A stretch of 64,000 nucleotides of DNA from Bacteroidota bacterium (GTDB taxonomy: Bacteria > Bacteroidota > Bacteroidia > UKL13-3). This document shows positions 1 through 64,000 of this stretch, piece by piece (the stretch's first letter is position 1; each line of letters starts with the position of its first letter). Location: the NCBI GenBank assembly GCA_027488905.1, contig JAIYAT010000010.1:21061-85060 (forward strand). Direction: 5' to 3'. The position numbers and the translations under genes are program-made. The notes below the pieces were generated by a model. The model saw only the letters and a list, made by a program, of their open reading frames with translations. It was not told where the DNA came from and made no database searches.

Positions 1-178
1 AAAGCCTCCATCATCCTTACGAACTATGTACCAACTGCCTGTAGATTTTACTACCTGTCCATGAATCATGTTGCAATATATTAAAACTACTTTCACAAAA
101 ATTATATATTTTGCAACGGTTTGCATGCTATTCAAGCAATGGGTAATATTATTTTTTGAATATTCTAGTTTTTTCATA

Positions 179-604
179 ATGATGAAGGCATATACAAAAA
201 TGGTTGGCGATTTATTTCATTATGGACATGTAAATTTGTTTAAGCAAGTTAAAAGCTTTGCAGATTACTTAGTGGTTCAAGTAGTTGAAGATGCTAGGGT
301 ACAAGCCTATAAAAGAAAACCTATCCTAACACAACAAGAAAGAATTCTGGTTATTGAAGCTTGCAAGTTTGTAGATGAAGTTACTGCTTTTGGGCCCAAG
401 GAAATTTCTTTAGCATTTATGAAGGCGAATGGATTTGATTATTATGCCTACTCCTTTAGTTCAGAAAAGGAGCGAATAGTTAAACGAGCCGACTGTATAG
501 GTTTGCCTGAAAAGATGATTTTGGAACTGCCTTATACTTTTGGGATTTCAACCACTGAAATCATACAAAGGGTGTTGGATTATCATCGTGAAAAATTATC
601 CTAA
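179..604 (+). CDS. Cytidylyltransferase-like nucleotidyltransferase (HxGH family; TagD/ECT-like). ORF track starts at 68; first ATG with a plausible N-terminus is at 179
   Basis: HxGH motif (DLFHYGHVNLF) near N-terminus and overall similarity to glycerol-3-phosphate/phosphoalcohol cytidylyltransferases; size ~140 aa. Confidence 0.6.
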   Translation: MMKAYTKMVGDLFHYGHVNLFKQVKSFADYLVVQVVEDARVQAYKRKPILTQQERILVIEACKFVDEVTAFGPKEISLAFMKANGFDYYAYSFSSEKERIVKRADCIGLPEKMILELPYTFGISTTEIIQRVLDYHREKLS

Positions 605-623
605 CTTAAAGGCAAATCTTTAA

Positions 624-2243: not shown

Positions 2244-3938
2244 ATGGAATTTCGTGCCCAACTTAAAGAGGTAGCCAATGATTTTACTTTTTTCTTTAGC
2301 CGATTAGGCAAGAGTTACCTTTTACTTTTTATGTTCACGTTAATGAGTGGCCTAGCAGATGGCTTAGGAATCGCAGTACTCATACCACTCTTTAAATTTA
2401 TCTTAGAGGGCAATGGCTTTTTGCAAATTTACCCTACTACTTGGTCATGGTTGCCAGCCCAGCTTGCAAGTAAGTTTTCGGTTGAGGGTATCTCACTAAG
2501 AATGGATACTTTGTTAGGATTGGTTTTTGCATTGTTTGCCATAAAGGGCTTGTTCAATTTTAAGGGAACAAAGTATTTGCTAAACATACGGCATCGCTTT
2601 ATGAGTGGTTTGCGTGGCGAATTAATCAAGCATGTTTGCAGATTACCTTATGCAAGTTTTGTGGGTATGCAAGCCGGTAAAATAGAAAGTTTAATGAACA
2701 TGGAAGCCTCCAGAGCCACCATGGCTTTTAGAACGTTTAATGAAGCACTAAATTATTTTGTATTAGCTATTTTATATATCGTCTTAGCCACTTTTTCAGA
2801 TTATAGAATTTCAATTTTCTTGGTTGTTTCAGGTTTGTTGACTGTATTGGTGTATCGGCATTTGTTTAGGTTAACAAAGCGGTTTTCTTTAGACATTTCA
2901 ACATCCAATCATGGTTTGGCCTTTAAGCTAAATGCTTTGTTGCAACACTTTAAATACCTTAAGGCCAGTGGCCGCTTGTTTCAGTTCGAAAGGGAAGTGC
3001 TAAAGGCAGGCTCGCTTATAGAAAAAAAAGAACAATTATTGGGCAAGTATGCGGCTATTTCTGGTGCTATAAAAGAGCCACTAATTATATTAATTGTTTC
3101 TGCCTTGTTGCTTACAAACTTTCACTATTTTAAAGGAAATGGAAGTTTTGCCTTTTTTAGTTTACTTATGTTTCATAGGGCTTTTACTCATTTGTTGCAG
3201 TTTCAATCGCAATGGAACATTTACTTAAATTTTGCAGGTTCAATTCATCAAATAAGAATGTTTAATGAGGCAGCAAAGGAAGAGGTGTTTCCAGAAACTT
3301 CTAAGCAGTTTCGGTTTGAGAATCGACTTGAAATTAATAATCTTAGTTTAAAATTAAAGCAACATGAGGTATTCAATGCCTTTCAGTTAAGGATTGAAAA
3401 AGGAAGCTTTGTGCTTATCAAAGGTGCTAGTGGCAAAGGCAAAACTACCTTGTTAAATTTACTGGCGCGTTTATATTCACCTGATTCAGGAACCATCATG
3501 CTTGATGGCATCAACATCACTTCATTTGACATCGATAGTTATCGCCAAAAGGTAGCTTATATTACACAAGAAAATGTGGTTTTTGAAGATACCTTATTTA
3601 ACAATATTAGTTTTTGGGATGAGCCAAATCTAGAAAATATTCAACGCTATACACAAGCAATAGAGCAAGCCGGATTAACAGAATTAATGGCCTTGGGGGA
3701 AGTTAAATTTAAAAAGGAATCTGTGAGTGTTGGGCAGGCGCAGCGCATTGCCATTGCTAGAGAATTATATAAAGATGCCGAAATTCTTTTAATGGATGAA
3801 ATCACATCTTCACTTGATGATGCCAATGAGCAAATTATTTTAGAAACACTTGCGCAATTAAAAGGCGCTAAAACCATTATTATGGTGTCACACAAGGATA
3901 GTGTTTTGCCATTGGCAGATGTTGTTATTGAGATTTAG
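2244..3938 (+). CDS. ABC exporter, fused permease/ATP-binding protein (MsbA-like)
   Basis: Walker A GASGKGKTTLLN, ABC signature LSVGQAQRIAIAR, Walker B ILLMDEITSSLD; multiple N-terminal TM helices. Confidence 0.85.
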   Translation: MEFRAQLKEVANDFTFFFSRLGKSYLLLFMFTLMSGLADGLGIAVLIPLFKFILEGNGFLQIYPTTWSWLPAQLASKFSVEGISLRMDTLLGLVFALFAIKGLFNFKGTKYLLNIRHRFMSGLRGELIKHVCRLPYASFVGMQAGKIESLMNMEASRATMAFRTFNEALNYFVLAILYIVLATFSDYRISIFLVVSGLLTVLVYRHLFRLTKRFSLDISTSNHGLAFKLNALLQHFKYLKASGRLFQFEREVLKAGSLIEKKEQLLGKYAAISGAIKEPLIILIVSALLLTNFHYFKGNGSFAFFSLLMFHRAFTHLLQFQSQWNIYLNFAGSIHQIRMFNEAAKEEVFPETSKQFRFENRLEINNLSLKLKQHEVFNAFQLRIEKGSFVLIKGASGKGKTTLLNLLARLYSPDSGTIMLDGINITSFDIDSYRQKVAYITQENVVFEDTLFNNISFWDEPNLENIQRYTQAIEQAGLTELMALGEVKFKKESVSVGQAQRIAIARELYKDAEILLMDEITSSLDDANEQIILETLAQLKGAKTIIMVSHKDSVLPLADVVIEI

Positions 3939-3969
3939 GTTTGAACCAAAACAGTAGATTTGAAATAGT

Positions 3970-4420: not shown

Positions 4421-4786
4421 ATGAAAATTCGTATCAAAGGAAATTCAGTTCGTTACCGTTTAAGCAAGTCTGAAGTTGCTAACTTTGGCGAAGTTGGCGC
4501 GTTAACAGAAACTACAGAAACATTAGGTGAAACCTTCTGTTACCAATTGCTTCGTGCGCCAGTTGAAACTTTAACAGTGCATTTTCATCAAAATACCTTG
4601 ACGTTTTCCGTACCGCTAGCCATCGCTCAAACGTGGGTTCAAACCGAAGAAATAGGATATAGCCACAAATTGCAATTGCCCAATGGAACTGAGGTTTACT
4701 TGCTTTTAGAAAAAGACTTTGTTTGCATCGACAATACCTTTGAAGATCAAAGTGATAATTATCCAAATCCCAATGCTGCCTGTTAA
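4421..4786 (+). CDS. Hypothetical protein (start taken at MKIRIKG inside ORF 4322..4786)
   Basis: ORF only; no recognisable motif. Confidence 0.35.
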   Translation: MKIRIKGNSVRYRLSKSEVANFGEVGALTETTETLGETFCYQLLRAPVETLTVHFHQNTLTFSVPLAIAQTWVQTEEIGYSHKLQLPNGTEVYLLLEKDFVCIDNTFEDQSDNYPNPNAAC

Positions 4787-12962: not shown

Positions 12963-14047
12963 GAATTGGGCTGTTCACATTTTTCTTTTTTTTCGGTTTG
13001 AACCAAATCTTTTCGCAAACAAAACAAGTTGCATGGAGCATTGGCTTTCAACCGCAGCGGTCATTCGTTTATGCCCACACGCCTAAATTGATTCAATTTA
13101 AAGGCTCTGGCGGGTATGGGTTTCAACTGGATTTAAATAGATTGCGATTAGATTCTTTAGCCTTACAATTTGCTCATGTGCGTTTCAACAGTGGGTTTGG
13201 ATTTCAATACCTAAACTTTGAAAACGCTAGCCTAGGTTCAGCCTTTAACTTTTCCTATTTTTTAGAACCTATTTTGTGGGAAAATCAAACGCTGCAATTG
13301 CGCTTGCGTGCGGCTGGTGGCTTAAATTTAGCAAGCAAACCTTTCGATGAATTCAATAATCCTACAAATCCAGCTTATAGTTCTTTTGTCAATGGTTATT
13401 TGGGTTTGGGAATAAGTGCTTATGTTAAAATAAATGCTGCCACATGGCTTTTTGCAAATGGTACTTATAGCCATTTTTCTAACGGAAATACCTACAATCC
13501 AAATTATGGACTTAATTATCCGCATATTGGTTTGGGTGTAGATTATAAATTCAAAGAAACACAAAAGCCCATTGGTAAAACACTATTTCAAAAAGAGAAA
13601 TGGCGATTTGATATGGGCGTTTTTGGGACTAATAAATCGCTGCCGTATTTTAGAAAGATTCGATTTTGGGCATATGGCGCCTCGGTTCAAGCCAGCTATA
13701 GAACAGGTCCTATTAATGCATGGACTTTGGCCTTGGAAGGTTTTAGAGACCATAGCATGAGAATGGCCGTTGACAGCAACTCGTTAAATCCCAATAAGGA
13801 TGTAAGTATTAGTTTGGCTGGAGCAATGGTTGGACATGAATTTGTCTTCAACCGTTGTGTTTTTTCACAACAATTGGGGATGTATTTGTTTAATGAATTA
13901 CCCCCTGATTTAGTAGGAAAGTTTTACCACCGTTGGGGTTTTAATTATAAACTTAACAAACAGTTTATGGTTGGTTTGAACCTAAATGCCAATTTGCAGA
14001 AAGCTTTTTTATTTGATGCGAGGGTAATCTATAGTTTATATAAGTAA
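12959..14047 (+). CDS. Hypothetical outer-membrane beta-barrel protein (signal peptide; possibly lipid A deacylase-like)
   Basis: Signal peptide, alternating beta-strand-like pattern, aromatic C-terminus (YSLYK); family not confidently recognised. Confidence 0.4.
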   Translation: MRIGLFTFFFFFGLNQIFSQTKQVAWSIGFQPQRSFVYAHTPKLIQFKGSGGYGFQLDLNRLRLDSLALQFAHVRFNSGFGFQYLNFENASLGSAFNFSYFLEPILWENQTLQLRLRAAGGLNLASKPFDEFNNPTNPAYSSFVNGYLGLGISAYVKINAATWLFANGTYSHFSNGNTYNPNYGLNYPHIGLGVDYKFKETQKPIGKTLFQKEKWRFDMGVFGTNKSLPYFRKIRFWAYGASVQASYRTGPINAWTLALEGFRDHSMRMAVDSNSLNPNKDVSISLAGAMVGHEFVFNRCVFSQQLGMYLFNELPPDLVGKFYHRWGFNYKLNKQFMVGLNLNANLQKAFLFDARVIYSLYK

Positions 14048-15468: not shown

Positions 15469-16451
15469 AAAGAATAATTTTAATGGTTTTGGTTCTAGGA
15501 ACCATCCAAATGGCCAATGCGCAAGTAACAAGGAAAATTGTTGTAGAACATTTTACAAACACCTTTTGTAGCGTTTGTGCAAGCAGAAACCCTGGTTTTT
15601 TCACAAACTTGGAAACACAAAAAGATGTTTTGCAATTGTCAATACATCCAAGTTCACCTTATAGTCAGTGTTATTTTAACAAACAAAACAAGGCTGAAAA
15701 TGATGCAAGAACAAATTACCATGGGGTGTATGGCTCAACACCAAGATTGGTAATAAATGGCGTGGTTTTAAACTCCTCAACAAACTATAGCAGCTCGGCA
15801 ATTTTTGATGCCTATAAATCACAAACCAGTGATTTTTCAATTACTGTAAAAGGTAAATATGTTGGCGATTCTGTTGAAGTTGAAACAGTTGTAAAAGCTG
15901 TTGTGAACAATACGCTAGGAAACGCTAATTTATTTGTAGCCTTGGCCAATGCAAGGGTAAATTATGCTGCTGGAAATGGTGAACAATTGCACCATAATGT
16001 GTTTAGAAAAAGTATTTATAACACAGGTGGTTTAGCTATTACTTTGCCTGCTAAAGCTGGTGATTCGCTGGTGTTAATTTCTAAAGTTAAGAAGGAGGCT
16101 ATTTGGGGTACAAATGACTTATTTGCGCTAGCAATTTTAAACAACGCTGCAAACAAAAATCTCATCCAAGCTGAACAATCTGCTACCATTTCTTTGGCAA
16201 GCGGACTAGAAGTTATCAGTGCATCAAGTTTTAAGTTATTTCCAAATCCAGTGCAAGACTTTTTGCAGTTTGAACATGAACAATACCAATGGCAGCAGTA
16301 TAAAGTGTATACCATACAAGGAAGTTTGGTGTATTCGGGCAAATTAGATTCACAAGTTGGCCTTACAGTTTCTGGTTTGAACCAAGGGATTTACCTTCTT
16401 GAGTTATCAAATGAGCAATATATTTTTAAAGGAAAATTTATTAAACAATAA
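15465..16451 (+). CDS. T9SS C-terminal-sorting-domain protein (Omp28-related N-terminal region)
   Basis: Signal peptide; C-terminal ~80 aa match the type A sorting-domain pattern (KLFPNP...LLELSNEQYIFKGKFIK); ATG at 15465 overlaps upstream stop (ATGA). Confidence 0.65.
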   Translation: MKRIILMVLVLGTIQMANAQVTRKIVVEHFTNTFCSVCASRNPGFFTNLETQKDVLQLSIHPSSPYSQCYFNKQNKAENDARTNYHGVYGSTPRLVINGVVLNSSTNYSSSAIFDAYKSQTSDFSITVKGKYVGDSVEVETVVKAVVNNTLGNANLFVALANARVNYAAGNGEQLHHNVFRKSIYNTGGLAITLPAKAGDSLVLISKVKKEAIWGTNDLFALAILNNAANKNLIQAEQSATISLASGLEVISASSFKLFPNPVQDFLQFEHEQYQWQQYKVYTIQGSLVYSGKLDSQVGLTVSGLNQGIYLLELSNEQYIFKGKFIKQ

Positions 16452-16843: not shown

Positions 16844-17574
16844 AAAGCATCAAATTAGTATTAATTTTTGGGTCAGCTATCTTGCCTTTTATGGCTTGCG
16901 GACAATATTTTACTAAAGGTAACCATGCAGACTTGAGCCTTTCAACTAATTTTTCTCAAAGTGCGATTGCAATTTCTACTTTCCATCTCCATCAATTGGG
17001 CAAAAGTAAAAAATTTAGATTGGGTTATGGTATTAGGTACACGGGTAACTTTGGTTCAAACAGTAATTTTATAACTGCGCCAGCTAAATTTACTTCTGGA
17101 AATACGGGTTTAGGTGTGATTTTCTCAGAAATTTTAGTTAATAATTTAGATACCCTTAGTTTTGCTAAACACCAAGTAAATAGCCTTAATTTAGCAGTGT
17201 ATTTAGGTCTTCAGGTTAGTAAGAAAATTGGTTTAGAGTTTAACATAGATGCTGTTGGGTTTTCTTTTGGTTCAAACCAAACTGCAGAGTACAATACTAG
17301 CAAACGTGCACAGTCTCCAAATAAAAATTCAAAGCAAGCAGCAAAAGTTACTGGTTTTAATGCTTTGCTTACAAGCGATAATGATTTAGGGAGTTTAAAT
17401 TCAGAATTACTCCTTCGTTACCAGATTTCAAATAAGTTGAAGCTTAAATTTGGTGCTACATTTGTTTTTACTGAATTTACAACTGATAATAAGCTGTTTC
17501 TGGATAATGATCGGTTCAGAAATAAGTCCTTACAACCCATGTTAGGATTGAGTTATTCATTTAATAATTATTAA
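16840..17574 (+). CDS. Hypothetical outer-membrane beta-barrel protein
   Basis: Signal peptide, beta-strand-rich, C-terminal aromatic (FNNY). Confidence 0.4.
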   Translation: MKSIKLVLIFGSAILPFMACGQYFTKGNHADLSLSTNFSQSAIAISTFHLHQLGKSKKFRLGYGIRYTGNFGSNSNFITAPAKFTSGNTGLGVIFSEILVNNLDTLSFAKHQVNSLNLAVYLGLQVSKKIGLEFNIDAVGFSFGSNQTAEYNTSKRAQSPNKNSKQAAKVTGFNALLTSDNDLGSLNSELLLRYQISNKLKLKFGATFVFTEFTTDNKLFLDNDRFRNKSLQPMLGLSYSFNNY

Positions 17575-42368: not shown

Positions 42369-42418
42369 ATCAGTTTTTTTCTGCTATCAGTTTAATGTTT
42401 GCACGATGATCCTATAAT

Positions 42419-42565: not shown

Positions 42566-42573
42566 AGTGCTTA

Positions 42574-43225: not shown

Positions 43226-43289
43226 AAATAAGAAAAAATATTTGGGTTTAAGAAGGTCTTATTTTTTTGCAAATTTAAATAGCATTACT

Positions 43290-43419
43290 GCCAACGTTTT
43301 CGGGCTTGGCGAAGGTGGCGATTTTCACCACAAATGTTGATGCGGAAAACCAAACTTTGATTAACCACAAATGTGTCTGCGGAGCACTGAACCGCCACTT
43401 TTGCCAAACCCGTGTTACC
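43290..43419. repeat. attC-like site (family C2)
   Basis: GCCAACgttttcgggcTTGGCGAAGGTGGCG ... CGCCACTTTTGCCAAacccgtGTTACCT; 10/6 loop. Confidence 0.5.
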
Positions 43420-43429
43420 TGCTGCCCTT

Positions 43430-44248: not shown

Positions 44249-44278
44249 TCTCCGAACCAGTACTTATTAAATACAAAA

Positions 44279-44629
44279 CTAAGTAGCATAATAGAATTTT
44301 TCTTTCACTATCAAACCATTTTCCCAATGTCTTACTGCTACTTCAGGATAAATAATTTTTTCGCTCTGCTCATTGGTATAATCAAAAAGGACTTCCTGAA
44401 TGCTCAGATTTTCACCATACGCCACGCTTAAAACTTTGAGTTTTAAGTCGGGAAATGCCTCTACAAAACCACCACACTGTTCACGATTGAAGTATTTGCC
44501 CACTCGTGGTTCGGTTTCGTTTTCCTGCATCGTTATATTTTCAGCATAGAAAAGCTCAAATGCTTCCATTGCTTTACCTTGCTCAATCATTGTGTTGAGC
44601 TGCTCATTGTTGTGTTTAAAATTACTCAT
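44279..44629 (-). CDS. NTF2/SnoaL-like small protein
   Basis: 116 aa, composition and C-terminal W..G.I.KE.FYY pattern typical of SnoaL-like folds. Confidence 0.4.
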   Translation of the reverse strand: MSNFKHNNEQLNTMIEQGKAMEAFELFYAENITMQENETEPRVGKYFNREQCGGFVEAFPDLKLKVLSVAYGENLSIQEVLFDYTNEQSEKIIYPEVAVRHWENGLIVKEKFYYAT

Positions 44630-44649
44630 TTTTTAAAATTTCGATGTGA

Positions 44650-45300
44650 TTAATTAAAAGTTTTTCGCAGAAATAAACCAGCATTCGGGTTGAATGTTGT
44701 TTCCAATTCATTGCTAACAGGGTTTCTAAATGTCGGTATTTGCGTGTCGCACCCAATGCCAAACTGAAATCCTTTATGCTCAAGTCCGAGCCTTATTTGC
44801 TGAAAACTGAAGTTGTGTTGCTGGAAATTAAAGTTAGTGCTAAAAGTGAGTTGAGAAAAGAATTTCAGTTTTTTAGTCAATTTAGGGTTATACACTAAAA
44901 GTCCAAACATTTCGTAGTTTGGTTTATTGGTCAATTCAATGGTCGGGAAAACATTAAGGTACAAGTCTCCTTTTTCATTGAAGTATTGCAAAGAAATTGC
45001 TGCAATTGGAACAAAGCCTTGATTTGTCATATACCCCCCCGTTGCAACACCAACGTATTGATTAAAATTAAACGTTGCAACAGAGTAAATAAATGGGTCA
45101 ACTGTTGACCTATCCTTGTAGTCAACAGTAAAATAAGTCAGGTTAAAAAAGCTGACGATACCAAGAGAGTCAATGGGTTTAGAAATAAGGATTTCGTGTT
45201 GAGCCTTTTTGTGTCCGCCAAAGACTTCGCCATAAATGATTTGTGCTTGCAAGGTCTGGCTTAGAAATGCCAAAATGAGAATTAAGAAAATTTGCTTCAT
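44650..45300 (-). CDS. Hypothetical outer-membrane beta-barrel protein (start at MKQIF; ORF track gives 45492)
   Basis: Signal peptide then beta-rich sequence ending in F. Confidence 0.4.
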   Translation of the reverse strand: MKQIFLILILAFLSQTLQAQIIYGEVFGGHKKAQHEILISKPIDSLGIVSFFNLTYFTVDYKDRSTVDPFIYSVATFNFNQYVGVATGGYMTNQGFVPIAAISLQYFNEKGDLYLNVFPTIELTNKPNYEMFGLLVYNPKLTKKLKFFSQLTFSTNFNFQQHNFSFQQIRLGLEHKGFQFGIGCDTQIPTFRNPVSNELETTFNPNAGLFLRKTFN

Positions 45301-45519
45301 ACTTGTCTGAATAAACTGTTTTGTCCATTTGACACAATTCAACCTACAAGTGTGAAGTGAAATTTGAAATTTTTTTGAGGTTTGTCGTTTAGGGTTGCAG
45401 GTAACTCTTTTACTTGCGAAGCAAAATACTAAATTAAGGTTAATTATTGTGAAATTGCCGATGGAAATTATCGTTTTATTGAAAGTTAGCAATTGATTAA
45501 TTTAGGTTCAGAAAGGCTC

Positions 45520-45756
45520 CTAACTCTCCAATACACCCGCACTCACACCCACACTCTTGCTCACACTCACACTCTTGCTTTTCACTCTTTCTCTTCCCTC
45601 TTTCTCTTCCCTCTTTTTCTTCCCTCTTGCTCCATACTGCTTATGTACCCCGCAATCAGTTTGGAGTGTGAGTCTTGAGCAAGAGTTTACGCACTTAATG
45701 AGAGTCTTCCAAAGCACTCTTTCTCCTCCCTCTTGCTCCATACTGCTTAGGTACCC
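45520..45756. repeat. Polypyrimidine (CT / CA-CT) low-complexity tract with ~45-bp internal direct repeat
   Basis: cactcacacccacactcttgctcacactcacactc... ctctttctcttccct units; ctcttgctccatactgctta(t/g)gtacccc occurs twice. Confidence 0.8.
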
Positions 45757-45758
45757 CC

Positions 45759-46022
45759 TTGGATTATCGTGATTACCCCCTTGGATTAACATGGACACCC
45801 GCTTGGATTAACATGGTTACCCCCTTGGATTAACATGGTTACCCCCTTGGATTAACATGGGTACCCGCTTGGATTAACATAGGTACCCGCTTGGATTAAC
45901 ATGGGTACCTGCTTGGATTAACATGGGTACCCCCTTGGATTAACATGGGTACCTGCTTGGATTAACATAGGTACCCGCTTGGAGCATCGTGGGTACCCCC
46001 TTGGTGTAACATATATAAGAAG
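45759..46022. repeat. 22-bp tandem direct repeat, ~12 copies (consensus TTGGATTAACATGGGTACCCSC), iteron-like
   Basis: Units begin at 45759, 45781, 45803 ... 46001 with exact 22-bp phasing; terminal copies degenerate. Confidence 0.9.
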
Positions 46023-46065
46023 GGGAAGCATAAAGTAGATTGTGTAAACTTGTGTAAGATTTGGT

Positions 46066-46100
46066 ACAAAAAAAGTCATCCCCGAAACTGGAGATGACTT
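46066..46100 (-). terminator. Rho-independent terminator for the 46126..46962 gene
   Basis: AAGTCATCCCC / GGAGATGACTT stem (one mismatch) with 6-nt loop, followed on the minus strand by a T7 run. Confidence 0.5.
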
Positions 46101-46125
46101 GCTAAGGGTTGATAACTAAGCTTAT

Positions 46126-46962
46126 TTATAAGCCGATTTTACTGAAAAATTTAAATGGTATTACCTGATGATGTTCTGAACTGGTTCTGCCAAATGTACC
46201 ACGGATATTTGCTTTCACTTGGCGGCCTAATATGATGATTCCGTTTTCTTCATTATAAAATAGTACATCGCGTTTGTGACGCGCATAGGTTAGGGTATTC
46301 TCTAAAGCATTTACCTCATCATTTATCTGCTCCAATTTTAACTGATAGGCTTTTAGGGCTGCTATCTCGAGTTCGCTTTGGTTGGGTTTATAATTGGGTA
46401 TCATTTCTAGAAACTCAATAAACTGCAAAAAGTCTTCTGCTCTTTTTTCTAAGGTAAGATAGGCTCCTATGTGTTTGCTTGGTTTAGACTCACCTGTTTC
46501 AGCGGGTGCCGATTGCTTTTTGTTATAGCCCTTAATTTGTTTAACCACCAAGTATAGGTCATGGTAAAGGCTTTTGTCTACCCCCTGCGATTGCAGCATG
46601 TCTAGTATCCTACTGAGCATCTGGTTTTGGTCCTTGAATAGGTTCAACCTACGCGTAGTGGCATTTAAATAATCCGTTTCTGCATCACTTACCTTTTTAA
46701 TGGCCATTCGACTCTGTGAAAGGAAGTCTTCCAGAGTGGCTAGGCTTAGGTTGGGGTTAGAAGGGTTGTAGGCGGTACCGAATTTCTTCACTACATCAAT
46801 CAAACCAGAGAAATTGTTCATTTTAGCTGTAAAGCTAGATAGATTGTGCTTGTTCATATTTTTATGTATTAATAATGACACTGCAAGTATTGACATAAAA
46901 GGCTGAACAGTAAAGGCTAAATAGTTTGATATTACGCAGATACAAGCTATGTTCTTGCGCAA
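46126..46962 (-). CDS. Hypothetical protein adjacent to the 22-bp repeat array (start uncertain)
   Basis: ORF only; no tyrosine-recombinase or Rep motifs recognised. Confidence 0.4.
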   Translation of the reverse strand: MRKNIACICVISNYLAFTVQPFMSILAVSLLIHKNMNKHNLSSFTAKMNNFSGLIDVVKKFGTAYNPSNPNLSLATLEDFLSQSRMAIKKVSDAETDYLNATTRRLNLFKDQNQMLSRILDMLQSQGVDKSLYHDLYLVVKQIKGYNKKQSAPAETGESKPSKHIGAYLTLEKRAEDFLQFIEFLEMIPNYKPNQSELEIAALKAYQLKLEQINDEVNALENTLTYARHKRDVLFYNEENGIIILGRQVKANIRGTFGRTSSEHHQVIPFKFFSKIGL

Positions 46963-47145
46963 ATTGCATATGCAAGGACAATATCCTAGGCAAACACCCT
47001 TTCATTTGCATATTTCGCAAATAAACCAGCACTTAATTTGCACTACACCCAAATGGAAAGTAATTTTTTTACACCAAATGCAATTTTATTTTGGGCAAAT
47101 TGGGGAGTTGAAGCAGACCATGGTCCATCGACAATGGTCCATGGT

Positions 47146-47685
47146 CTACTCCAACTCCCTTTTCTCAGCTGCCCTTTTTATTTCAAACAAACCTTCCTCA
47201 AAACCAGCCTCAGTTGATTTAATCTTGGAAGGGAGCATAAACCTAAAAATTGGGTTATAACCCACATCGCCAGAATCTACCCAAATTAGGTGCGTTTTAT
47301 TGGCCACAGGCTTAAAGTAAAAAGTAGCTTCGGAATGCATGGTGCCTTCATTGATGCTTAAATCATAATGAATCATTTCATTTTGTTGGCTCTTAGTTAT
47401 TTTAAACCTTCCAATCCCTACTAGGCCACCTCTAAAATACTGGGCCGCCCCTTGGCCGCTCTTCACTTTGCTATAAAAGCTAACCATAGAACTGTCTAGT
47501 TGGGTATTCCACGGACTCCAATCGGCCCAATTGCGAATGCTGTTCATGTAGGCATAAGTTTCATATACAGGCTTGTTAATAACCGTGCTGCGCTCTATAC
47601 GGTAGGTTTTAGGAAAAAGCAAGGAAACCAAAAACACCAATCCAACTAATCCTAAGATGGCCGCAAATATTCCAAATAATTTCAT
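47146..47685 (-). CDS. SRPBCC-superfamily (polyketide-cyclase-like) protein with N-terminal anchor
   Basis: N-terminal TM helix plus SRPBCC-like length and pattern. Confidence 0.5.
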   Translation of the reverse strand: MKLFGIFAAILGLVGLVFLVSLLFPKTYRIERSTVINKPVYETYAYMNSIRNWADWSPWNTQLDSSMVSFYSKVKSGQGAAQYFRGGLVGIGRFKITKSQQNEMIHYDLSINEGTMHSEATFYFKPVANKTHLIWVDSGDVGYNPIFRFMLPSKIKSTEAGFEEGLFEIKRAAEKRELE

Positions 47686-48969: not shown

Positions 48970-49997
48970 TACTTGAGATATCCTTAAAACGAGGCCTCAT
49001 TGGCTTTAGCAGCTTTTGGCTACTATGGCTATTTATCCATTTTTATGTATTAATGGATTTTGAAATTCCTATTGGCATTGCCTTTACAGATGCCTTGGTT
49101 TCGCAAAGTTTTTTTCTGCTCATTGCCAGCATTTTATTTCTTACCCTAAAATACTATCAACCTACAGAAGGTAATTTCTTTTACCTGCGCATTTGGTCCT
49201 TACTTTTAGCTACTGGTGCTACTGCAGGCAGCTATGAAATTTTAAAGTTTCGGTTTGAACCAAACACCCTTTACACCAAATTTTTATACGACTCTGTCAC
49301 CATTCGATTCTTGTTTCAAGTATTAATGGTAGGCATGGTTACTGTTTTACTTTGGTTAGTAAATTTTCATAGACAAGATAAAAGCCTAAACGAGCGAAAA
49401 CAAATGCTAGAAGATGCAGCCAAAGATGCAGAGTTATATAATTTACGCCAACAGCTACAACCTCATTTTTTGTTTAATAGCCTTAATTCAATAAGCGCAT
49501 TGGCAGGCTCCAAGCCTGAGTTAGCAAGGTCTATGATTCAACAACTCTCAGAATTTTTGAGGCATACCTTAAACAAAGACGATAAGCAATTGGTGAGCCT
49601 AAAAGAAGAGTTGCACCAACTCAATTTATATTTACAAATAGAAAAGGTAAGGTTTGGACATCGCCTACTTACCTCGGTTCAAACCGACCCAAACTGCGAA
49701 GGCCTTATGCTGCCTGTTTTGGTGTTGCAGCCTTTGGTAGAAAATGCCATTAAGTTTGGTTTATATGATACCTTATATGAAGTTTTAATTGCAGTGAAGG
49801 CTAGTTGCAACGAGGGCAAATTAGTAGTGGAAATAACTAATCCATTCGACCCTGCAAGTTCTAAGGCTGCTGCAGGTACGGGTTTTGGTTTAGCTTCCAT
49901 TCGCCGAAGATTATACCTTATTTATGCGCGTAATGATTTGGTTGAAACCTTTGCACAAGACAACCTATATGTCGCTAGAATTACCATTCCACAATGA
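48966..49997 (+). CDS. Sensor histidine kinase (LytS/2TM type)
   Basis: N-terminal TM helices; H-box LQPHFLFNSLNSI; HATPase region (VENAIKFG). Confidence 0.8.
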   Translation: MILEISLKRGLIGFSSFWLLWLFIHFYVLMDFEIPIGIAFTDALVSQSFFLLIASILFLTLKYYQPTEGNFFYLRIWSLLLATGATAGSYEILKFRFEPNTLYTKFLYDSVTIRFLFQVLMVGMVTVLLWLVNFHRQDKSLNERKQMLEDAAKDAELYNLRQQLQPHFLFNSLNSISALAGSKPELARSMIQQLSEFLRHTLNKDDKQLVSLKEELHQLNLYLQIEKVRFGHRLLTSVQTDPNCEGLMLPVLVLQPLVENAIKFGLYDTLYEVLIAVKASCNEGKLVVEITNPFDPASSKAAAGTGFGLASIRRRLYLIYARNDLVETFAQDNLYVARITIPQ

Positions 49998-50734: not shown

Positions 50735-53464
50735 TTAGATGTCAAAAGCCTTATCCATAATGGCTTGTTGTTCTTTCGCATGTACTTTGCTATAGCCAGT
50801 TGCAGGGGAAGCACTCGATTCTCTAGAAATTCTTTTTAGCTTTAAGTTTTGATCCCAACGCAATAAGTATAACCAAGCGCCCATGTTTTTAGGTTCTTCT
50901 TGTACCCAACAAATTTCTGCTTTAGCATATTTTGCATACAAATCTGCCAATTGGTTTTCTGGCATTGGATACAATTGTTCTAACCTTACAATAGCCACAT
51001 CTTTGCGTTGGTCTTTTTGTTGGCGCTCTAAAAGCTCATAGTATATTTTTCCAGTGCATAACAATACACGTTTTACCTTCTTGGTATCCACAAAGGTGTC
51101 GTCTATTAACTCTTGAAAATGTCCTTGGGTAAAATCTTCCAATTTACTCACACAACCCGGATGGCGCAACAAGCTCTTTGGAGACATCACTACCAAAGGC
51201 AAGCGAATGTCTTTGTGTTTTACTTGTCTTCTTAAGGCATGAAAATAATTAGCAGGCGTGGTGATGTTACAAACTTGCATGTTCCAATTGGCACACAGTT
51301 GTAAGAATCTTTCTAACCTAGCAGAAGAGTGTTCTGGTCCTTGACCTTCGTAACCATGCGGCAGCAATAATGTAAGTCCGCTAAAGGTTTTCCATTTAGT
51401 GGCAGCACTTGCTAGGTATTGGTCGATGATGATTTGCGCACCATTGGCAAAATCGCCAAACTGGGCTTCCCAAATGGTAAGGTCATTAGGTCTAATCATG
51501 CTAAAGCCATATTCAAAACCAAGCACAGCATATTCACTCAACAAAGAGTTATAGAACTTAACACCAGCATTGTTTAAGTCTCCAAGGTTATCAAAGATAT
51601 TGAAGCTTTTTTCTGAGTCTTCTTGTTTAATGATTGCATGTCTATGGCTAAAAGTACCACGCTCACAATCTTGACCAGTCATGCGCACATGATGTCCTTC
51701 ATGGGTAAGGGTTGCATAAGCCATTAGCTCGCCCATGGCCCAATCATAATTGTCGTTAGCAATCATGTTTTTGCGGTCTTTAAACAATTTTTCAATCTTG
51801 TTAAAGGCCTTGAACCCATCAGGAATATTGGTAAGAAGATTTGCAAGGTTTAGGAAGTTATCTTTAGCCACAGCAGTGCCATCAGATTTTAAGAAATCTT
51901 CTTGGTTAGCAGGTCTAAAGCCATCCCATAAGTTTTGCAAGAAATTTTTAGGTTTAGAAGGTTCAGCTCCTTTTGCGCTTTCTAGTTTCTCTTGTAATAA
52001 CTTCCTAAAAGAGCTTTCCATTTCCTTTGCTAGTTCGGCTTCTACACTCCCATTGGCCAGCAATTTTTGGTTGTAAAGTTCTCTTGGATTCGCATGCGTT
52101 GAAATGGCTTTGTACAAAACAGGTTGTGTAAACCTAGGTTCATCGCCTTCGTTATGGCCATATTTTCTATAGCCTAATAAATCTATGAATACATCGCTAT
52201 TAAACTCTTGGCGGTATTCCATGGCCAATTTAACGGTAAACACTACAGCTTCTACGTCATCTGCATTTACATGAAACACAGGGCATAAAGTAGTTTTGGC
52301 TACATCTGTGCAATAGGTAGAAGTTCTGGCATCGATGTAATTGGTGGTAAAACCAATTTGGTTATTGGCAACAATATGAATGCAGCCACCTACCGAGTAG
52401 GCTTTTAATCCGGCCATTTGTAATACTTCATACACAATGCCTTGGCCGGCAACAGAAGCATCTCCATGAATAAGAATTGGTGCAATTTTATCTTCATCAC
52501 TTTGGTGGGCAAATTCCATTTTAGCCCTAGTTATTCCTTTTACAACAGGATTAACGGTTTCTAAGTGTGAAGGATTAGGACTTAAACTCAAATGAACTTT
52601 TTTACCATTGCTGGTAGTAATATCCGATGTATACCCTAAGTGGTATTTCACATCGCCTTCAAAAATGCCTTCGTCTTCGGCGGCTTTTCCTTCAAATTCT
52701 TTAAAAATATCTTCATAGGTTTTACCTAGAATATTCGCCAAAACATTTAAACGACCACGATGCGCCATACCGAGCACAAATTCTTCAACGCCAAGGTCGG
52801 CACCATATTCTATCACAGAATCAAGTGCAGGAATTAAGGTTTCCAAACCTTCTAAGCTAAAACGTTTTTGGCCCACAAATTTTGTGTGCAAGAAGTTTTC
52901 AAAAACAGAAGCTTGATTGAGTTTAGAAAGCACATTTCTTTTTTGGTCGATAGAAAGTTGAGGAGTGTTGCGACTACTTTCCATTTTCTGTTTGAGCCAA
53001 GAGATTTTTTTAGGCTCACGCACATACATAAACTCTGCGCCAATGCTTTGGCAATAGGTTTGTTGTAGAAGCGCTATAATATCTTTAAGTTTGGCTGAAC
53101 CTAATCCTACTTCTGTTCCCGCATTAAAAGCCTTTTCTAAATCGGCTTGGTTCAAACCGAAATTTTCTATGGCCAAAGTTGGCTCATATTTTCTGCGCTC
53201 GCGCACTGGGTTTGTTTTGGTAAAAAGATGGCCTCTACTTCTGTATCCTTGAATAAGGTTAAGTACATTTATTTCTTTCAATACATCCTCAGAAACTGCA
53301 GTACCTTGTTTGCCATTGCTATATTTTTGGTTATACCCAAAATCAAAACCTTCGAAAAACTTCTTCCAACCAAAATCTACAGATTCTGGGTCATTCAGGT
53401 ATTGTTGATGTAAATTGTCAATGGCAGAAACGTCTGCATTTGAGAGGTAAGAGAATTGGTCCAT
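50735..53464 (-). CDS. sucA: 2-oxoglutarate dehydrogenase E1 component
   Basis: 909 aa; N-terminus MDQFSYLSNADVSAIDNLHQQYLNDPESVDFGWKKFFEGFDF characteristic of SucA; TPP-binding region. Confidence 0.9.
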   Translation of the reverse strand: MDQFSYLSNADVSAIDNLHQQYLNDPESVDFGWKKFFEGFDFGYNQKYSNGKQGTAVSEDVLKEINVLNLIQGYRSRGHLFTKTNPVRERRKYEPTLAIENFGLNQADLEKAFNAGTEVGLGSAKLKDIIALLQQTYCQSIGAEFMYVREPKKISWLKQKMESSRNTPQLSIDQKRNVLSKLNQASVFENFLHTKFVGQKRFSLEGLETLIPALDSVIEYGADLGVEEFVLGMAHRGRLNVLANILGKTYEDIFKEFEGKAAEDEGIFEGDVKYHLGYTSDITTSNGKKVHLSLSPNPSHLETVNPVVKGITRAKMEFAHQSDEDKIAPILIHGDASVAGQGIVYEVLQMAGLKAYSVGGCIHIVANNQIGFTTNYIDARTSTYCTDVAKTTLCPVFHVNADDVEAVVFTVKLAMEYRQEFNSDVFIDLLGYRKYGHNEGDEPRFTQPVLYKAISTHANPRELYNQKLLANGSVEAELAKEMESSFRKLLQEKLESAKGAEPSKPKNFLQNLWDGFRPANQEDFLKSDGTAVAKDNFLNLANLLTNIPDGFKAFNKIEKLFKDRKNMIANDNYDWAMGELMAYATLTHEGHHVRMTGQDCERGTFSHRHAIIKQEDSEKSFNIFDNLGDLNNAGVKFYNSLLSEYAVLGFEYGFSMIRPNDLTIWEAQFGDFANGAQIIIDQYLASAATKWKTFSGLTLLLPHGYEGQGPEHSSARLERFLQLCANWNMQVCNITTPANYFHALRRQVKHKDIRLPLVVMSPKSLLRHPGCVSKLEDFTQGHFQELIDDTFVDTKKVKRVLLCTGKIYYELLERQQKDQRKDVAIVRLEQLYPMPENQLADLYAKYAKAEICWVQEEPKNMGAWLYLLRWDQNLKLKRISRESSASPATGYSKVHAKEQQAIMDKAFDI

Positions 53465-60800: not shown

Positions 60801-61589
60801 AAGCGATTGTCTAGAAAACGTTATACTTTCGAAAGTCAGGGTTTAGGAATTACTACCTTAACATTAGACGATAACTTTAGCTATTTGATTGCATCCAATG
60901 GCAAGCAGATTTTAATGAGCCAAAAATATAATACTGTCAGCGCTCGCGTGCCCCAGTTTACAAGCTATCTTAGTCAAACCGACACCTTAAATTATTACCG
61001 ATTAATAGATATAGGTAGTATCTTAAATACAGTTAAATTTACCAAAATAGATGAAAGCGATTTTTCTGTAAAAGTAGTTAACGATAATAGACTTTCAGAC
61101 GCAAACAAAGATGTTATCAACCAAATACTCTACGAAACCAGAAATCTCAAGAACATGGATATCACCGTATTTGATACCTCTATTTCTAAAATACAAGTGC
61201 AAGTTGAAGCCACAGACAACTGGGGTCAAAACACCTATCTGCGTCATAAAACTTATTATTTTAGTGCCGACAGTATATATCGAATTAATGCTTTCGATCT
61301 CATTTTGGAAAGCACTCAAATTACTTTTGCCACCAATTTTGTAAGCGAGATTACCAAGGATAAAAATGTGAAATGGAATGCTTGCGTAAAACCCGAAAGG
61401 TTGTTTTCACACTTGCGATTTGATGTAGATTTTAATGCACAAGGAATGCGCTTTTTAACCTATAGTTTTGAAGACATCAATGGAAGTCCTTCTAAAAAAG
61501 AAGTTTTTTACACTTGGCAAGAACTAGCGCCTTACCTCAATAAAGACTATGTTCTCACAAAAAGATTTCTCGGTTTGAACCAAAAGTGA
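57861..61589 (+). CDS. Large secreted WG-repeat protein (1242 aa)
   Basis: Signal peptide; many ~35-aa units of the type K(W/Y)G(L/F)(I/M)D..G..(V/I)I.P.YD. Confidence 0.55.
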   Translation: MKQFKVLLLSLLFGKILFAQTSISVQPAIKIKGKVVSDILVPGHEFVYLFTNYELHNKDSALIQFDSTFEFSIANSSMPLAFSVSYKNSVSCALLPKIGEINLQVVKQEYPVKDDKRKVVSQNDYQFYHLENLVKLPMTLVENKSFALLDSVDFNKDLQHLLDSATNVLRIYQDSLHPLVYKEFERWLNLNSQIAYLDFALLKRLHQKEKTFDRVSIDYTKAARRLLLDSNQLSFAKWARIMLNVRVQALEAIDFQTSRFNPFEYQCEQINMEVLRKASPQSDGLNCDYGLVGAVSFYLIQEQYQSGWLIPPRFEKLSYFSNKYAIVVYNGRVGVIDACQNFTVQPNYSVLKEFKVYKNDSLPPLYIFRGAKNYGLLDHTGRQLLEENYDYLFQLDAARLAYRPINGNKFGMMDTNGKIIMTPKYDIFYSGNMMPGYFKVSNQHPFLKVKRRLDGERFFKPAELIGLIDSLGNEIVKPGWNDFNYMYMSYGLADGINWIGKKYHVLSRTLSTKKFGYISSNGFFILKPIYKNIFSATKSGQYVVAKKAKKYYIYFHHQPSKAPIKVDYFSKQFHGNATFRMDNKFYLIDSAGNFEKYGSFDSFRLSFEIEGDKSVVLLVRSGKWGLFSMQKMDWVLAPQWERMSANWKGFYAEKEGKMGFIDARSLKQPAAYYDTVFQRSMGYYEARLGNQKIILDSNGNKIFESDADEVYHLNTGYFGDSNFVVKRGKQLFTTNGIQETPLVSDRVSLYYLFSTRNNLGTLVSKKGYILGSTDSKDIGNRDYDYDDEVQQNPDLGNGNWLIYSNGFEMVIDEEANVKIPNNYRSIVPYISVFGNYQQVADFNVNLEDSLKERRYLVRSKTYYQGLYDAQFNLVLDTLYWDINFRKSLVMASLKKGLYIKDSNFRDITFIKDGRASTDLQGDRVTVIFDNSKRGVYQLSKGLILKPNYEEIIMEPNGIILAAKNSNNYDQPLVQIFDAKGKRLSRKRYTFESQGLGITTLTLDDNFSYLIASNGKQILMSQKYNTVSARVPQFTSYLSQTDTLNYYRLIDIGSILNTVKFTKIDESDFSVKVVNDNRLSDANKDVINQILYETRNLKNMDITVFDTSISKIQVQVEATDNWGQNTYLRHKTYYFSADSIYRINAFDLILESTQITFATNFVSEITKDKNVKWNACVKPERLFSHLRFDVDFNAQGMRFLTYSFEDINGSPSKKEVFYTWQELAPYLNKDYVLTKRFLGLNQK

Positions 61590-61641
61590 TTGCTAAGTTT
61601 TGCTGAATCCTTAGATTTGAACTTATCCAACTTAATGGCCA

Positions 61642-64000
61642 ATGAAAACTTTTAAACTTATAGTTCTTATTTTCTTATGCTCTTTTCAATTATTTGCACA
61701 AGAATCAATCATCAAAGGCAAAATAGCAGCTTCTGGCATTATTGCTGGGAGAGGTAAGGTTATTTTATCTATTACACATAATGGTAATACCACTTATGAT
61801 TCTTGCTTATTTGGTCTCGACAGCAGCTATATTTTTAAAGCCAAATTAAAAGGATTTTCATTAATAGAAATGCGTTATGAGCCTGGTGCTCATTACCTCG
61901 ACAGTTATTTACTCCTTCCTGGTGAAAGCCTCAACCTTCATGAAAATACCACTGAGGCGGAAAGTGAATTTGCTGCAAAAGTCTTGTCTAGGGGCAACAA
62001 CCTATTTAATGCCCTAGAAGCTTTTGAAGAATTTGATAACGCCTATAATTATGGCTTATTAGACTCAATTGCTTTCAATGAAAAATTACTTGCTGCAAAA
62101 GAAATTGCTATTGAAGCCATAAAAAATGGGCAAGACACTTTGCCGCCCAACTTGTTGCAGCTTGCCTTAAATTCCATTGAATTAAAGTCGGCAGAAATCT
62201 ATTTGAACTATGCTTATTTAGGTCGGTTTCAACAAAAAACTAAAACTTTAAATGCCGTTTCACCCTGGTTTATTGAACCCATTAAGCAGGTCTCCAAATT
62301 AGATGCTTTCCCCAATACCGAATTCCATGAAATCAAAACGAAGATAAATGATAGGCTTGCCGAATTGGTTAAGGTAAACTTTGAAACAGAAAAGTTAAGT
62401 CCGGCTTACAAAATATTAAATCATTCTTTTGGGATGGAGGTTGCCTTGGTCATGCACCAAGTATTTCCAAAGTCGGATGGACCTAATTGCAACTATGGCT
62501 ATGCGGCTGCGGCACAAGGTATTTTCATTCATAATGATTTTTATGAGGAAGGAAGTTCTGCCCCAGAAGGATGGCTAATTTCTCCTCAATTCGAACGTGC
62601 ATTTGAATTTAAAAAAGATGGTTATGCCATTGTGTTAGATGGTATGCATTATAAACTCATCAATGTCTTGGGTCAAACCGTGCTACAAAACGGCTTTGAG
62701 GATTTAATTTACTATGATTCTGGAATCTACATTGCCAGAAAATATGATAAGTACGGACTGATTTATGCCGATGGTAAAGCAATCATAGACTATCAATACC
62801 AAGCTTTAAATCCACTTGGCAATGATTTGTTCGCGTTCAGGTTTACGGGCAGTCCGTTTATGGGCATGATAGACATCAAAGGAAATGAAATTGTTAAACC
62901 AAAATATGGCTATATCAAACCTTTCGATGGCAGAGAATATGCAATAACTGTTGTGTTTGATGATAAGAAATGGACACCCAATCGTATCAATGGCAATAAA
63001 TTGAAAATGCCAGGGGAGAAGTTTGGGGTCATCGATAGAAATGGCAAAGAAATAATGCAACCAGGTTGGTATAGCATTGTGCCGCAATCACATAGTCAAG
63101 TCCAAAACTTTCCTTTGGTTGTATACAAGCGCACGTATAACAGCTTGTTTCGCAAATTTAGGATTGCAAACGACTTTCAAATGTTGGCTCAAACCGGAAC
63201 CCTATATGCTTGGAACAAGCGTTACCCATCCCTAAATCTGCCTGGTAAACAGTATTACTTTGCTTCTAATTTAAGCGAATCTGTTTTGCGTAAAACAGAT
63301 GGTTCTGTACAAAGCAAACCTTTTCGCTTAGATTATAACGGACTCAGCTCAATTGGTGATGATTACTTTATTGTGAGAATCCAAGATAAGTATGACCTTT
63401 TGCTAAAAGATGCATCAGGTGCTTTGCAAATAGATACCTTTCAAAGTATTGAACAAATTGAAAACAACTATGATTATGAATACAATGAAAATAACGCTAA
63501 CAACTCTTTGTTTAGGCTAATAAAAGACAATTGTCAAGGAATCATTAATTCAAATGGTAAAGTTGTATTGCCAAGCATTTATGATGATATTGAAAGTTTT
63601 GACTCATTGCTAGTGGTGAGTTTTAAGGATAAGTTTGCTGTTTTTGATACAACAGGTAAGCAGCTAACACCATTTGCTTATGATAAAGTGTATATATATT
63701 CTGATGTGCTAGGATTACTAGCCTTTGAAAAAGAGGGAAGCACTCAAATTTGTGATAGAAGCTTTAAGGTAATTTTTGAAGCGCCAGCTAAGGACATTTG
63801 GCTGGATGGAGCTTCATCGCTTGAAATTTGCAATTGGAGCTATTTAAAAGATGGCTTGCTTTGGCAATACAATAGACAAGAACATGTATTGCCTTTCAAG
63901 GATACATTGCATTATAGGTATTTAACCATGGGAGGAAGCTTAAGCACCCATATCGTAAATAAAAACGGTAGGTGGTTAGGAACTAGGGAATTTGAAGAAA
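61642..64000 (+). CDS. Large secreted WG-repeat protein, paralogue of the upstream gene (runs off window end)
   Basis: ATG 61642 with signal peptide MKTFKLIVLIFLCSFQLFAQE; open to the window end; shares the ...SDG(P/L)NC(N/D)YG...GWLI(S/P)P(Q/R)FE... block with the upstream gene. Confidence 0.5.
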   Translation, partial: MKTFKLIVLIFLCSFQLFAQESIIKGKIAASGIIAGRGKVILSITHNGNTTYDSCLFGLDSSYIFKAKLKGFSLIEMRYEPGAHYLDSYLLLPGESLNLHENTTEAESEFAAKVLSRGNNLFNALEAFEEFDNAYNYGLLDSIAFNEKLLAAKEIAIEAIKNGQDTLPPNLLQLALNSIELKSAEIYLNYAYLGRFQQKTKTLNAVSPWFIEPIKQVSKLDAFPNTEFHEIKTKINDRLAELVKVNFETEKLSPAYKILNHSFGMEVALVMHQVFPKSDGPNCNYGYAAAAQGIFIHNDFYEEGSSAPEGWLISPQFERAFEFKKDGYAIVLDGMHYKLINVLGQTVLQNGFEDLIYYDSGIYIARKYDKYGLIYADGKAIIDYQYQALNPLGNDLFAFRFTGSPFMGMIDIKGNEIVKPKYGYIKPFDGREYAITVVFDDKKWTPNRINGNKLKMPGEKFGVIDRNGKEIMQPGWYSIVPQSHSQVQNFPLVVYKRTYNSLFRKFRIANDFQMLAQTGTLYAWNKRYPSLNLPGKQYYFASNLSESVLRKTDGSVQSKPFRLDYNGLSSIGDDYFIVRIQDKYDLLLKDASGALQIDTFQSIEQIENNYDYEYNENNANNSLFRLIKDNCQGIINSNGKVVLPSIYDDIESFDSLLVVSFKDKFAVFDTTGKQLTPFAYDKVYIYSDVLGLLAFEKEGSTQICDRSFKVIFEAPAKDIWLDGASSLEICNWSYLKDGLLWQYNRQEHVLPFKDTLHYRYLTMGGSLSTHIVNKNGRWLGTREFEE

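Follow-up and report, generated by a model that had tools for sequence, protein, structure and literature searches.

We report a word of 10–16 bases, tttcGGTTTGAACCAA, that an uncultured freshwater lineage of Bacteroidota carries throughout its core genes at about 100 times the frequency expected by chance. It was found in a 64,000-nt stretch of one genome of this lineage (contig JAIYAT010000010.1, positions 21,061 to 85,060 of the forward strand, assembly GCA_027488905.1), hereafter termed the window, and was then followed into the flanking DNA and into related sequences. The copies are short, lie mostly inside unrelated genes on both strands, and differ in spelling between sublineages. We tentatively propose that the word serves as an analogue of the sequences that promote DNA uptake in some Proteobacteria, and we set out below the evidence for the word itself, the points that speak for and against such a function, and the other explanations that we have weighed.

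Abundance and form of the word

The 10-mer GGTTTGAACC occurs in 16 exact copies in the window, 10 on the plus strand and 6 on the minus strand. Markov models estimated from the window predict 0.08, 0.14, 0.28, 0.26, and 0.48 copies at orders 0 to 4 and 2.5 at order 6, and 100 dinucleotide-preserving shuffles of the window gave a mean of 0.15 and a maximum of 1. A first-pass annotation of this DNA had reported a strong over-representation of the 10-mer and had suggested the comparison with a Markov expectation, which leaves the count unexplained at all orders from 0 to 6. Its list of 15 copies was accurate for 14 of them, while the copy placed at 49666 lies at 49676 and another, at 972, had been overlooked, which brings the total to 16. 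The variants that it mentioned also exist, GGTTTTGAACC at 10238 as given and the other slightly displaced, in that GGGTTGAACC starts at 6724 and 32322, so that GGTTGAACC starts at 6725 and 32323.

Ranking of the k-mers of the window places the hardest core of the word in its 3′ part. The near-invariant 8-mer TGAACCAA occurs 32 times against about 2.5 expected (order 0), and the 9-mer TTGAACCAA, with 27 copies, outnumbers the 10-mer. When the 16 copies of GGTTTGAACC are aligned, A is found at motif position 12, the second base past the 10-mer, in all 16 and at position 11 in 11, and a T-rich run closing with C or T lies on the 5′ side. The overall consensus, tttY-GGTTTGAACC-AA, is asymmetric, and the earlier description of a palindrome-like 10-mer, although correct as far as it went, covered only part of it. 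The corresponding 12-mer, GGTTTGAACCAA, has 11 copies in the window, with 18 more sites that deviate from it at one position. Substitutions within the 10-mer fall mostly at positions 2, 3, and 8 and essentially never at T5, G6, A7, C9, and C10.

The 10-mer is near-palindromic (GGTT-TG-AACC), with 8 of its 10 positions self-complementary and with quasi-symmetric flanks (TTT...AAA). All 16 copies have TG/CA at the centre. Forms with a palindromic centre (CG, TA, GC, or AT) are represented by 0–1 copies, and two of them, GGTTCGAACC and GGTTTAAACC, have no copy in the window. Information content is limited to about –8 to +6 around GAACC, and the best hairpin at the motif sites reaches only –0.6 to –2.3 kcal/mol. 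The strict TG centre, the confined information, and the weak hairpin together indicate that the motif, as judged from its sequence, is a short asymmetric recognition word of the protein type, and neither a structured element nor a dispersed repeat with conserved flanks. A role as a hairpin or terminator was considered and rejected, the hairpin being too weak, as was an origin from repetitive extragenic palindromes (REP) or miniature inverted-repeat transposable elements (MITE), since the sites have no extended conserved sequence and no stable hairpin; about 90% of them are coding. Scans of the window against Rfam and for tRNAs gave no match; GGTTCAAACC does look like a tRNA T-arm, but without pairing flanks the resemblance is no more than superficial.

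Placement in genes and constraint on the DNA

The sites considered here are the 29 that lie within one mismatch of the 12-mer (Table 1). According to a simple map of open reading frames (ORFs) the window is 91% coding (8.5% non-coding), and 26 of the 29 sites are fully within genes, one lies over a stop codon, and two are outside the gene set, that at 19581 falling in an alternative ORF. The genes involved are unrelated and encode a YggS-like protein, an ABC exporter, a molybdopterin oxidoreductase, a glycosyltransferase, a protein with a type IX secretion system (T9SS) tail, a member of the biotin/lipoate ligase family, pantothenate kinase, BamG, a histidine kinase, SucA, and a 1242-aa repeat protein, so an origin of all copies from one repeated gene family, which the first-pass annotation had named as one outcome that would overturn its view, is not what is found. 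The genic sites comprise 13 sense and 13 antisense copies and use five of the six reading frames, which read GLNQ/L (11 sites), xFEP (2), LVQT (7), GSN (3), and WFKP (3), while the sixth frame, which creates a TGA stop, has no site.

Within-gene shuffling of synonymous codons, in which proteins and codon usage are kept, reduces the 15 copies in coding sequences to a mean of 1.15 and a maximum of 5 over 300 trials. The tripeptide Gly-Leu-Asn is spelled GGTTTGAAC in 8 of its 15 occurrences, where codon usage predicts about 3%, and the tetrapeptide GLNQ is found 7 times against 0.32 expected (about 20-fold). Copies in frame 0 had been said to encode GLNQ five times and GLNL twice with identical codons; with the copy at 972 these become six and two, always GGT TTG AAC. 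From the loss of signal on shuffling, the fixed codons, and the excess of GLNQ we conclude that the constraint acts on the DNA and is strong enough to alter protein sequence. The earlier suggestion of selection at the DNA level is borne out by these data and by the equal use of both strands of unrelated genes. A protein-altering effect has likewise been reported for uptake sequences (PMC2817400; 10.1101/2025.10.24.684340). Conservation of the protein segments at the sites has a median percentile of 0.30, a value that comes from only 6 sites with distant homologues.

Distribution within and beyond the lineage

The window carries genes of Bacteroidota type (BamG, Dpp7, and a T9SS tail protein), and metagenome assemblies were the only place where exact protein look-ups matched the region. 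SucA was also used for a species-level scan of genomes, and each of the 80 loci obtained belongs to a metagenome-assembled genome (MAG) or to uncultured freshwater Bacteroidota; the nearest have SucA identities of 99%, 92%, and 88%, and the complete genome UKL13-3 stands at about 79%. The exact 10-mer is present in the nearest relatives and essentially absent further out. Computed against an order-0 expectation, the enrichment of TGAACCAA is 10-fold in genomes with SucA identity of 88% or more, 12-fold at 81–87%, 6-fold at 80%, 3–4-fold at 76–79%, 1.7-fold at 70–75%, and 0.6-fold at 69% or less, and composition-matched control words have median ratios of about 0.6–1.1. The word is lineage-specific, fading to background below about 70% SucA identity.

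The enrichment extends beyond the window. The left flank (9.4 kb adjoining the window) contains 4 more exact copies, and the right flank (7.6 kb) contains no exact copy and 5 cores, 3 of them as GGGTTGAACCAA. A scan of metagenomes for the 16-mer TTTCGGTTTGAACCAA matched at least 120 stretches. Among those listed, the 55 with 32–40% guanine plus cytosine (GC) hold 21 extra non-seed 10-mers and 80 extra cores in 248 kb, and the 65 of other GC content hold no extra 10-mer in 354 kb. Since the copy-rich contigs encode housekeeping proteins such as GldE, a T9SS-tail protein, GlnS, and RNase G, they represent unlinked Bacteroidota loci. Motif density through the core genome of the lineage is about 0.25–0.5 copies per kb. 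The notion of a host-genome signature, put forward from the window alone, therefore extends to the flanks and to unlinked metagenome loci of this one lineage. In a separate scan of viral contigs for TTYGGTTTGAACCAA, the only multi-copy stretch among the matches listed was a tandem pair in a giant-virus MAG.

Dialects and turnover at orthologous sites

The sublineages carry dialects of the word, GGTTTGAACC, GGTCTGAACC, and GGCTGAACC, sometimes at one orthologous site. With the stretches from relatives labelled by L-numbers, the form ttcGGTTTGAACCAA (GGTT) is found in the window, L051, L003, and L012, the form ttcGGTCTGAACCAA (GGTC) in L005 and L018, and the form tttGGCTGAACCAA (GGC) in L068, L006, L007, and L011. 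The dialects vary in the 5′ half, and the TGAACCAA part is identical throughout. At one position of the histidine-kinase gene, for example, L012 and L014 have a perfect TTTCGGTTTGAACCAA where L005 reads GGTCTGAACCAA, L018 has the same flanks as L005, and the window has a decayed copy, GGTTTCAACCAA. At 53147, in SucA, the window, L051, and L003 all have a perfect site, L004 has a mutated one, and L012 and L005 have unrelated sequence of equal length. Orthologous sites thus differ without insertions or deletions, and copies are therefore gained and lost by substitution and not by insertion.

Copies are also retained above background. All 4 of the alignable exact copies are intact in L051, compared with 17% of aligned 10-mers that are identical (P ~8e-4), and the 8-mer core is conserved 2.3–2.8 times as often as background 8-mers at 65–85% identity, a figure taken over all pairs of relatives, which are not phylogenetically independent.

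The inserted island

Five relatives connect the window at about 29.3 kb straight to about 47.15 kb, and with the flanks directly joined in these five the region 29.9–47.15 kb must be an insertion. This 17-kb segment has a lower GC content, and in other assemblies its genes are found only on contigs of 2–5 kb. Hypervariable DNA would be expected to behave in this way, and the segment has the look of an inserted island of that kind. Of the 20 exact copies in the 81 kb formed by the window and its flanks, 1 lies in the island (P=0.053), as do 3 of the 42 TGAACCAA cores (P=0.013), although the island makes up 21% of that length and its composition alone predicts just 2–15% fewer copies. The scarcity of the word in acquired DNA that had been noted at the outset is thus present, the only exact copy in the island (43614) being in a sigma-factor-like gene just outside the cassettes bounded by attC-like repeats.

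Proposed function as an uptake sequence

The known DNA uptake sequences (DUS) and uptake signal sequences (USS) are motifs of about 9–12 bp that recur roughly once per kb, with hundreds or thousands of copies in a genome. Such a genomic footprint is known to arise when competent cells favour motif-bearing DNA in uptake and then recombine it. In Neisseria the receptor is a ComP-type minor pilin. To our knowledge, sequence-biased DNA uptake has been documented in just two proteobacterial families, both host-associated. By analogy with these systems we propose, as a reading that we favour but hold at somewhat less than an even chance, that the word is an uptake-enhancing sequence in Bacteroidota. 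It resembles DUS and USS in its core of about 10–12 bp with graded flank preferences, in its density and its use of both orientations, in the frame bias, stop avoidance, and distorted peptide content of its genic copies, and in its lineage-specific dialects, origin by point mutation, turnover at orthologous sites, above-background retention, and scarcity in acquired DNA. What makes this reading the best fit is that the word has dialects and turns over by point mutation. Codon-frame bias, avoidance of stops, and a preference for permissive regions have been described for DUS and USS (10.1101/2025.10.24.684340).

In the mechanism that we envisage, a cell-surface DNA receptor of the natural-transformation machinery would prefer fragments that bear the motif, so that conspecific DNA would be preferentially taken up and recombined. 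Biased uptake and recombination would in turn spread new copies through the core genome, and foreign islands would remain motif-poor. Natural transformation occurs in Bacteroidota by means of an outer-membrane machinery that is independent of pili and has components found widely across the phylum (PMC8459023), which makes such a class of receptor conceivable, and the receptor might be among the uptake proteins of this kind known from Riemerella. The fuller proposal, to which we give slightly less weight, is that this could be the first DNA-uptake-sequence system outside Proteobacteria, with a core genome tagged by tttcGGTTTGAACCAA and its sister dialects and with conspecific DNA preferred via a surface receptor that may belong to a pilus-independent machinery rather than being a type IV pilin.

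Several observations weigh against an uptake function. About half of the copies of known DUS and USS lie in terminators, often as inverted pairs (10.1101/2025.10.24.684340). The Bacteroidota word, unlike these, is not enriched in terminators or intergenic DNA, the 3 of 29 sites that are not fully genic being about the share expected from the 8.5% of the window that is non-coding, and no close inverted pairs were seen in the window. It is also, unlike DUS and USS, near-palindromic, a form that would suit a dimeric DNA-binding or modifying enzyme equally. The spacing of the copies is not significantly more even than random (coefficient of variation 0.84, P=0.17). The depletion in the island is moderate and rests on one island (P=0.013–0.05), the analysed DNA amounts to about 81 kb of one genome (the 64-kb window and about 17 kb of flanks) plus fragments of relatives, and the lineage is known only from MAGs and metagenomes. 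It should further be noted that the phylum has no known uptake sequence and the lineage no known competence phenotype, receptor, or type IV pilus, and that no gene for ComEC, DprA, ComF, or a sequence-specific surface receptor was found within the roughly 81 kb annotated. A full-text literature search for the word and its core gave only incidental primer or miRNA matches, and nothing was found on uptake sequences outside Pasteurellaceae and Neisseriaceae. With no published description found, we take the motif to be undescribed.

The sister dialects GGTCTGAACCAA and GGCTGAACCAA (in L005, L018, L068, L006, L007, and L011) have CTGAA in common with the Neisseria DUS GCCGTCTGAA, and GTCTGAA in one case, as do GGTCTGAACC and GGCTGAACC with respect to CTGAA. 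This is a resemblance only and is probably a coincidence.

Other explanations

The best of the alternatives, although we regard it as unlikely, is that the word is a hyper-abundant quasi-palindrome kept by a methyltransferase, a repair system, or some other intracellular process without any uptake of DNA. Such maintenance has been proposed for HIP1 (GCGATCGC) in cyanobacteria, the function of which is still debated. Like HIP1, the Bacteroidota word is short, hyper-abundant, genic, lineage-wide, and maintained at the DNA level, with a palindromic character. Its flanks are quasi-symmetric, and its lack of association with terminators sets it apart from DUS and USS. One report describes the same genic abundance, lineage specificity, and neutral orientation for HIP1 (10.64898/2026.06.24.733823). 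HIP1 is, however, a perfect palindrome recognized by known methyltransferases, whereas the word has a strictly non-palindromic TG/CA centre, asymmetric flanks with an extra C on one side, and no known link to a methyltransferase. Neither a methyltransferase nor a Vsr-like gene is present among the domain-annotated genes of the window, in which many ORFs have no Pfam match. An origin of GGTTTGAACC by deamination of a methylated palindrome, GGTTCGAACC, was rejected because the CG form, which would be expected if the TG came from a methylated CpG palindrome, has 0 copies and because the dialects of the relatives keep TG.

Somewhat less probable again is that the word is bound by an abundant protein of the chromosome, be it nucleoid-associated, architectural, or of condensin type, and that its sites are selected throughout the core chromosome. 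High density, neutral orientation, above-background conservation, and rarity in foreign DNA would all be accounted for, and the quasi-palindromic shape suits a dimer. The combination of density, specificity, and dialect drift would nevertheless be unprecedented for such a protein. Known nucleoid-protein sites are degenerate, AT-rich, and mostly intergenic; parS, NBS, SBS, and matS sites number in the tens per genome, compared with roughly 1000 implied for the word; and rapid change of dialect between close lineages is unusual for core architectural proteins. Moreover, we know of no chromosomal protein whose 12-bp site is imposed on coding sequence so strongly that the proteome is distorted.

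A polar chromosome signal, either Chi (recognized by RecBCD/AddAB) or the FtsK-orienting polar sequences (KOPS), is very improbable. The word shares with Chi and with KOPS and the architecture-imparting sequences (AIMS) the character of a host-specific, over-represented core-genome oligomer that is rare in foreign DNA. Unlike these strongly strand-polar signals it has no polarity, adjacent copies of the core pointing the same way in 88 of 174 pairs (window and all copy-rich related contigs pooled; the order in the window runs +-++-++-+-+-+...), and it is 12–16 bp long and about 100-fold enriched, whereas Chi and KOPS measure 5–8 bp and are enriched only a few-fold. Random orientation argues in the same way against any other replication-oriented signal and against a function at the level of RNA. 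Among the functions first suggested for the word, polar signals of repair or segregation are thus disfavoured, a site for an architectural protein keeps the small probability given above, and an uptake sequence is the best fit, as a function that we infer.

Least probable of all, to a degree that we consider negligible, is a by-product of a gene family, a protein motif, a mobile mini-repeat, or base composition, since the frequent frame-0 reading of GLNQ/GLNL that might suggest it is outweighed by the unrelated genes and the half of sites that are antisense, by a fixed codon choice and a signal lost on synonymous shuffling, by flanks unconserved past about 4 bp and the weak hairpin, by orthologous sites that differ by substitution and not insertion, and by a count that Markov models to order 6 fail to explain.

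Significance

If the word is indeed an uptake sequence in these free-living freshwater bacteria, self-preferring transformation would have evolved independently in another phylum, and natural transformation would be frequent in an abundant, uncultured lake lineage. Co-variation of dialect and receptor across MAGs would then provide a handle on a new kind of sequence-specific DNA receptor, and the word would be a practical marker with which to bin these genomes and to separate their acquired from their core DNA. If it is not an uptake signal, there would still be an unexplained genome-wide constraint that reshapes proteins, comparable to the long-standing puzzle of HIP1.

Sites and neighbouring loci

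Table 1. Motif sites in the window (coordinates of the 12-mer) and context features.
Feature	Coordinates	Strand	Context
Exact 12-mer GGTTTGAACCAA	972..983	+	YggS-like gene, frame 0 (GLNQ); missed in the first pass
Exact 12-mer	3938..3949	+	Overlaps stop codon of ABC-transporter gene, extends into spacer
One-mismatch variant GGATTGAACCAA	4364..4375	+	GLNQ
Exact 10-mer, 12-mer = GGTTTGAACCCA	4634..4645	-	Antisense to gene
Variant GGCTTGAACCAA	5706..5717	-	
Variant GGGTTGAACCAA	6724..6735	+	
Variant GTTTTGAACCAA	10239..10250	+	
Variant GTTTTGAACCAA	12063..12074	-	
Exact 12-mer, tttttc flank	12995..13006	+	FGLNQ
Exact 10-mer, 12-mer ending CCTA	13973..13984	+	GLNL
Exact 12-mer	16374..16385	+	T9SS-tail protein gene (SGLNQ)
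Variant TGTTTGAACCAA	17051..17062	-	
Exact 12-mer	17267..17278	-	Antisense to gene
Variant GGGTTGAACCAA	19581..19592	-	Outside greedy gene set, within alternative ORF 19238-19771; coding status uncertain
Exact 10-mer, 12-mer ending CCGA	20677..20688	-	
Variant GGTTTGATCCAA	21991..22002	+	
Exact 10-mer	26269..26280	+	Biotin/lipoate ligase-family gene (GLNL)
Exact 12-mer	26332..26343	+	SGLNQ; 63 bp from copy at 26269
Exact 12-mer	26839..26850	-	Antisense in pantothenate kinase gene
Variant GGTTTGATCCAA	28561..28572	+	BamG gene
Variant GGGTTGAACCAA	32322..32333	+	Intergenic, within island
Exact 12-mer	43614..43625	+	Antisense in sigma70_r2 gene; sole exact copy in inserted island
Exact 12-mer	49252..49263	+	Histidine kinase gene, frame 1 (RFEP); conserved in L004, L051
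Exact 10-mer	49674..49685	-	Conserved in L004, L051
Decayed copy GGTTTCAACCAA	49938..49949	-	Histidine-kinase gene; intact ortholog in L012, L014
Exact 12-mer	53147..53158	-	SucA (FGLNQ)
Exact 12-mer	61572..61583	+	4 codons ahead of stop, 1242-aa gene (LGLNQK)
Variant GGTTTGACCCAA	62668..62679	-	
Variant GGTTTGAGCCAA	63184..63195	-	
Inserted accessory island, motif-poor (context only)	29900..47150	.	Absent from relatives; holds attC-like cassette array
attC-like repeats, examples	33276-33417, 35285-35427, 37846-37987, 43284-43436		Ends match integron attC core sites
13-bp CT-rich tandem repeat	45572-45651		Adjoins 22-bp repeat at island edge
22-bp tandem repeat	45704-46055	-	9 exact copies of ATGTTAATCCAAG; at least 11 units with degenerate ones
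LytS-type histidine kinase and LytTR response regulator	48966-50734		Beside LiaF-like membrane protein and DUF4288 gene
Tandem paralogous genes, ~1240 aa	57861-61589 and 61642-64000		Second continues into L327 to 17519

The two copies in the biotin/lipoate ligase-family gene form a direct pair (26269-26343), and a similar direct pair, 57 bp apart (5993, 6050), is present in the metagenome contig L244. The LytS-type kinase gene has three motif sites, one of which shows a change of dialect across relatives.

Within the island, the region from about 32400 to 43440 consists of small minus-strand ORFs split by imperfect inverted repeats of about 130–140 bp that are attC-like and run TGTGCCTAAC...GTTAGGCACA. 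No match to an integrase domain was found among the larger flanking ORFs that were scanned, and judging from these repeats the region may represent an integrase-less array of cassettes in a Bacteroidota genome. The sequence ATGTTAATCCAAG, considered for a time as a second dispersed word, is in fact the unit of the local 22-bp tandem repeat. At the right-hand end of the window, the tandem paralogous genes have only faint matches to WG_beta_rep, and the first of them has a blastn match in L051 and none in L004, a relative of 92% average nucleotide identity.

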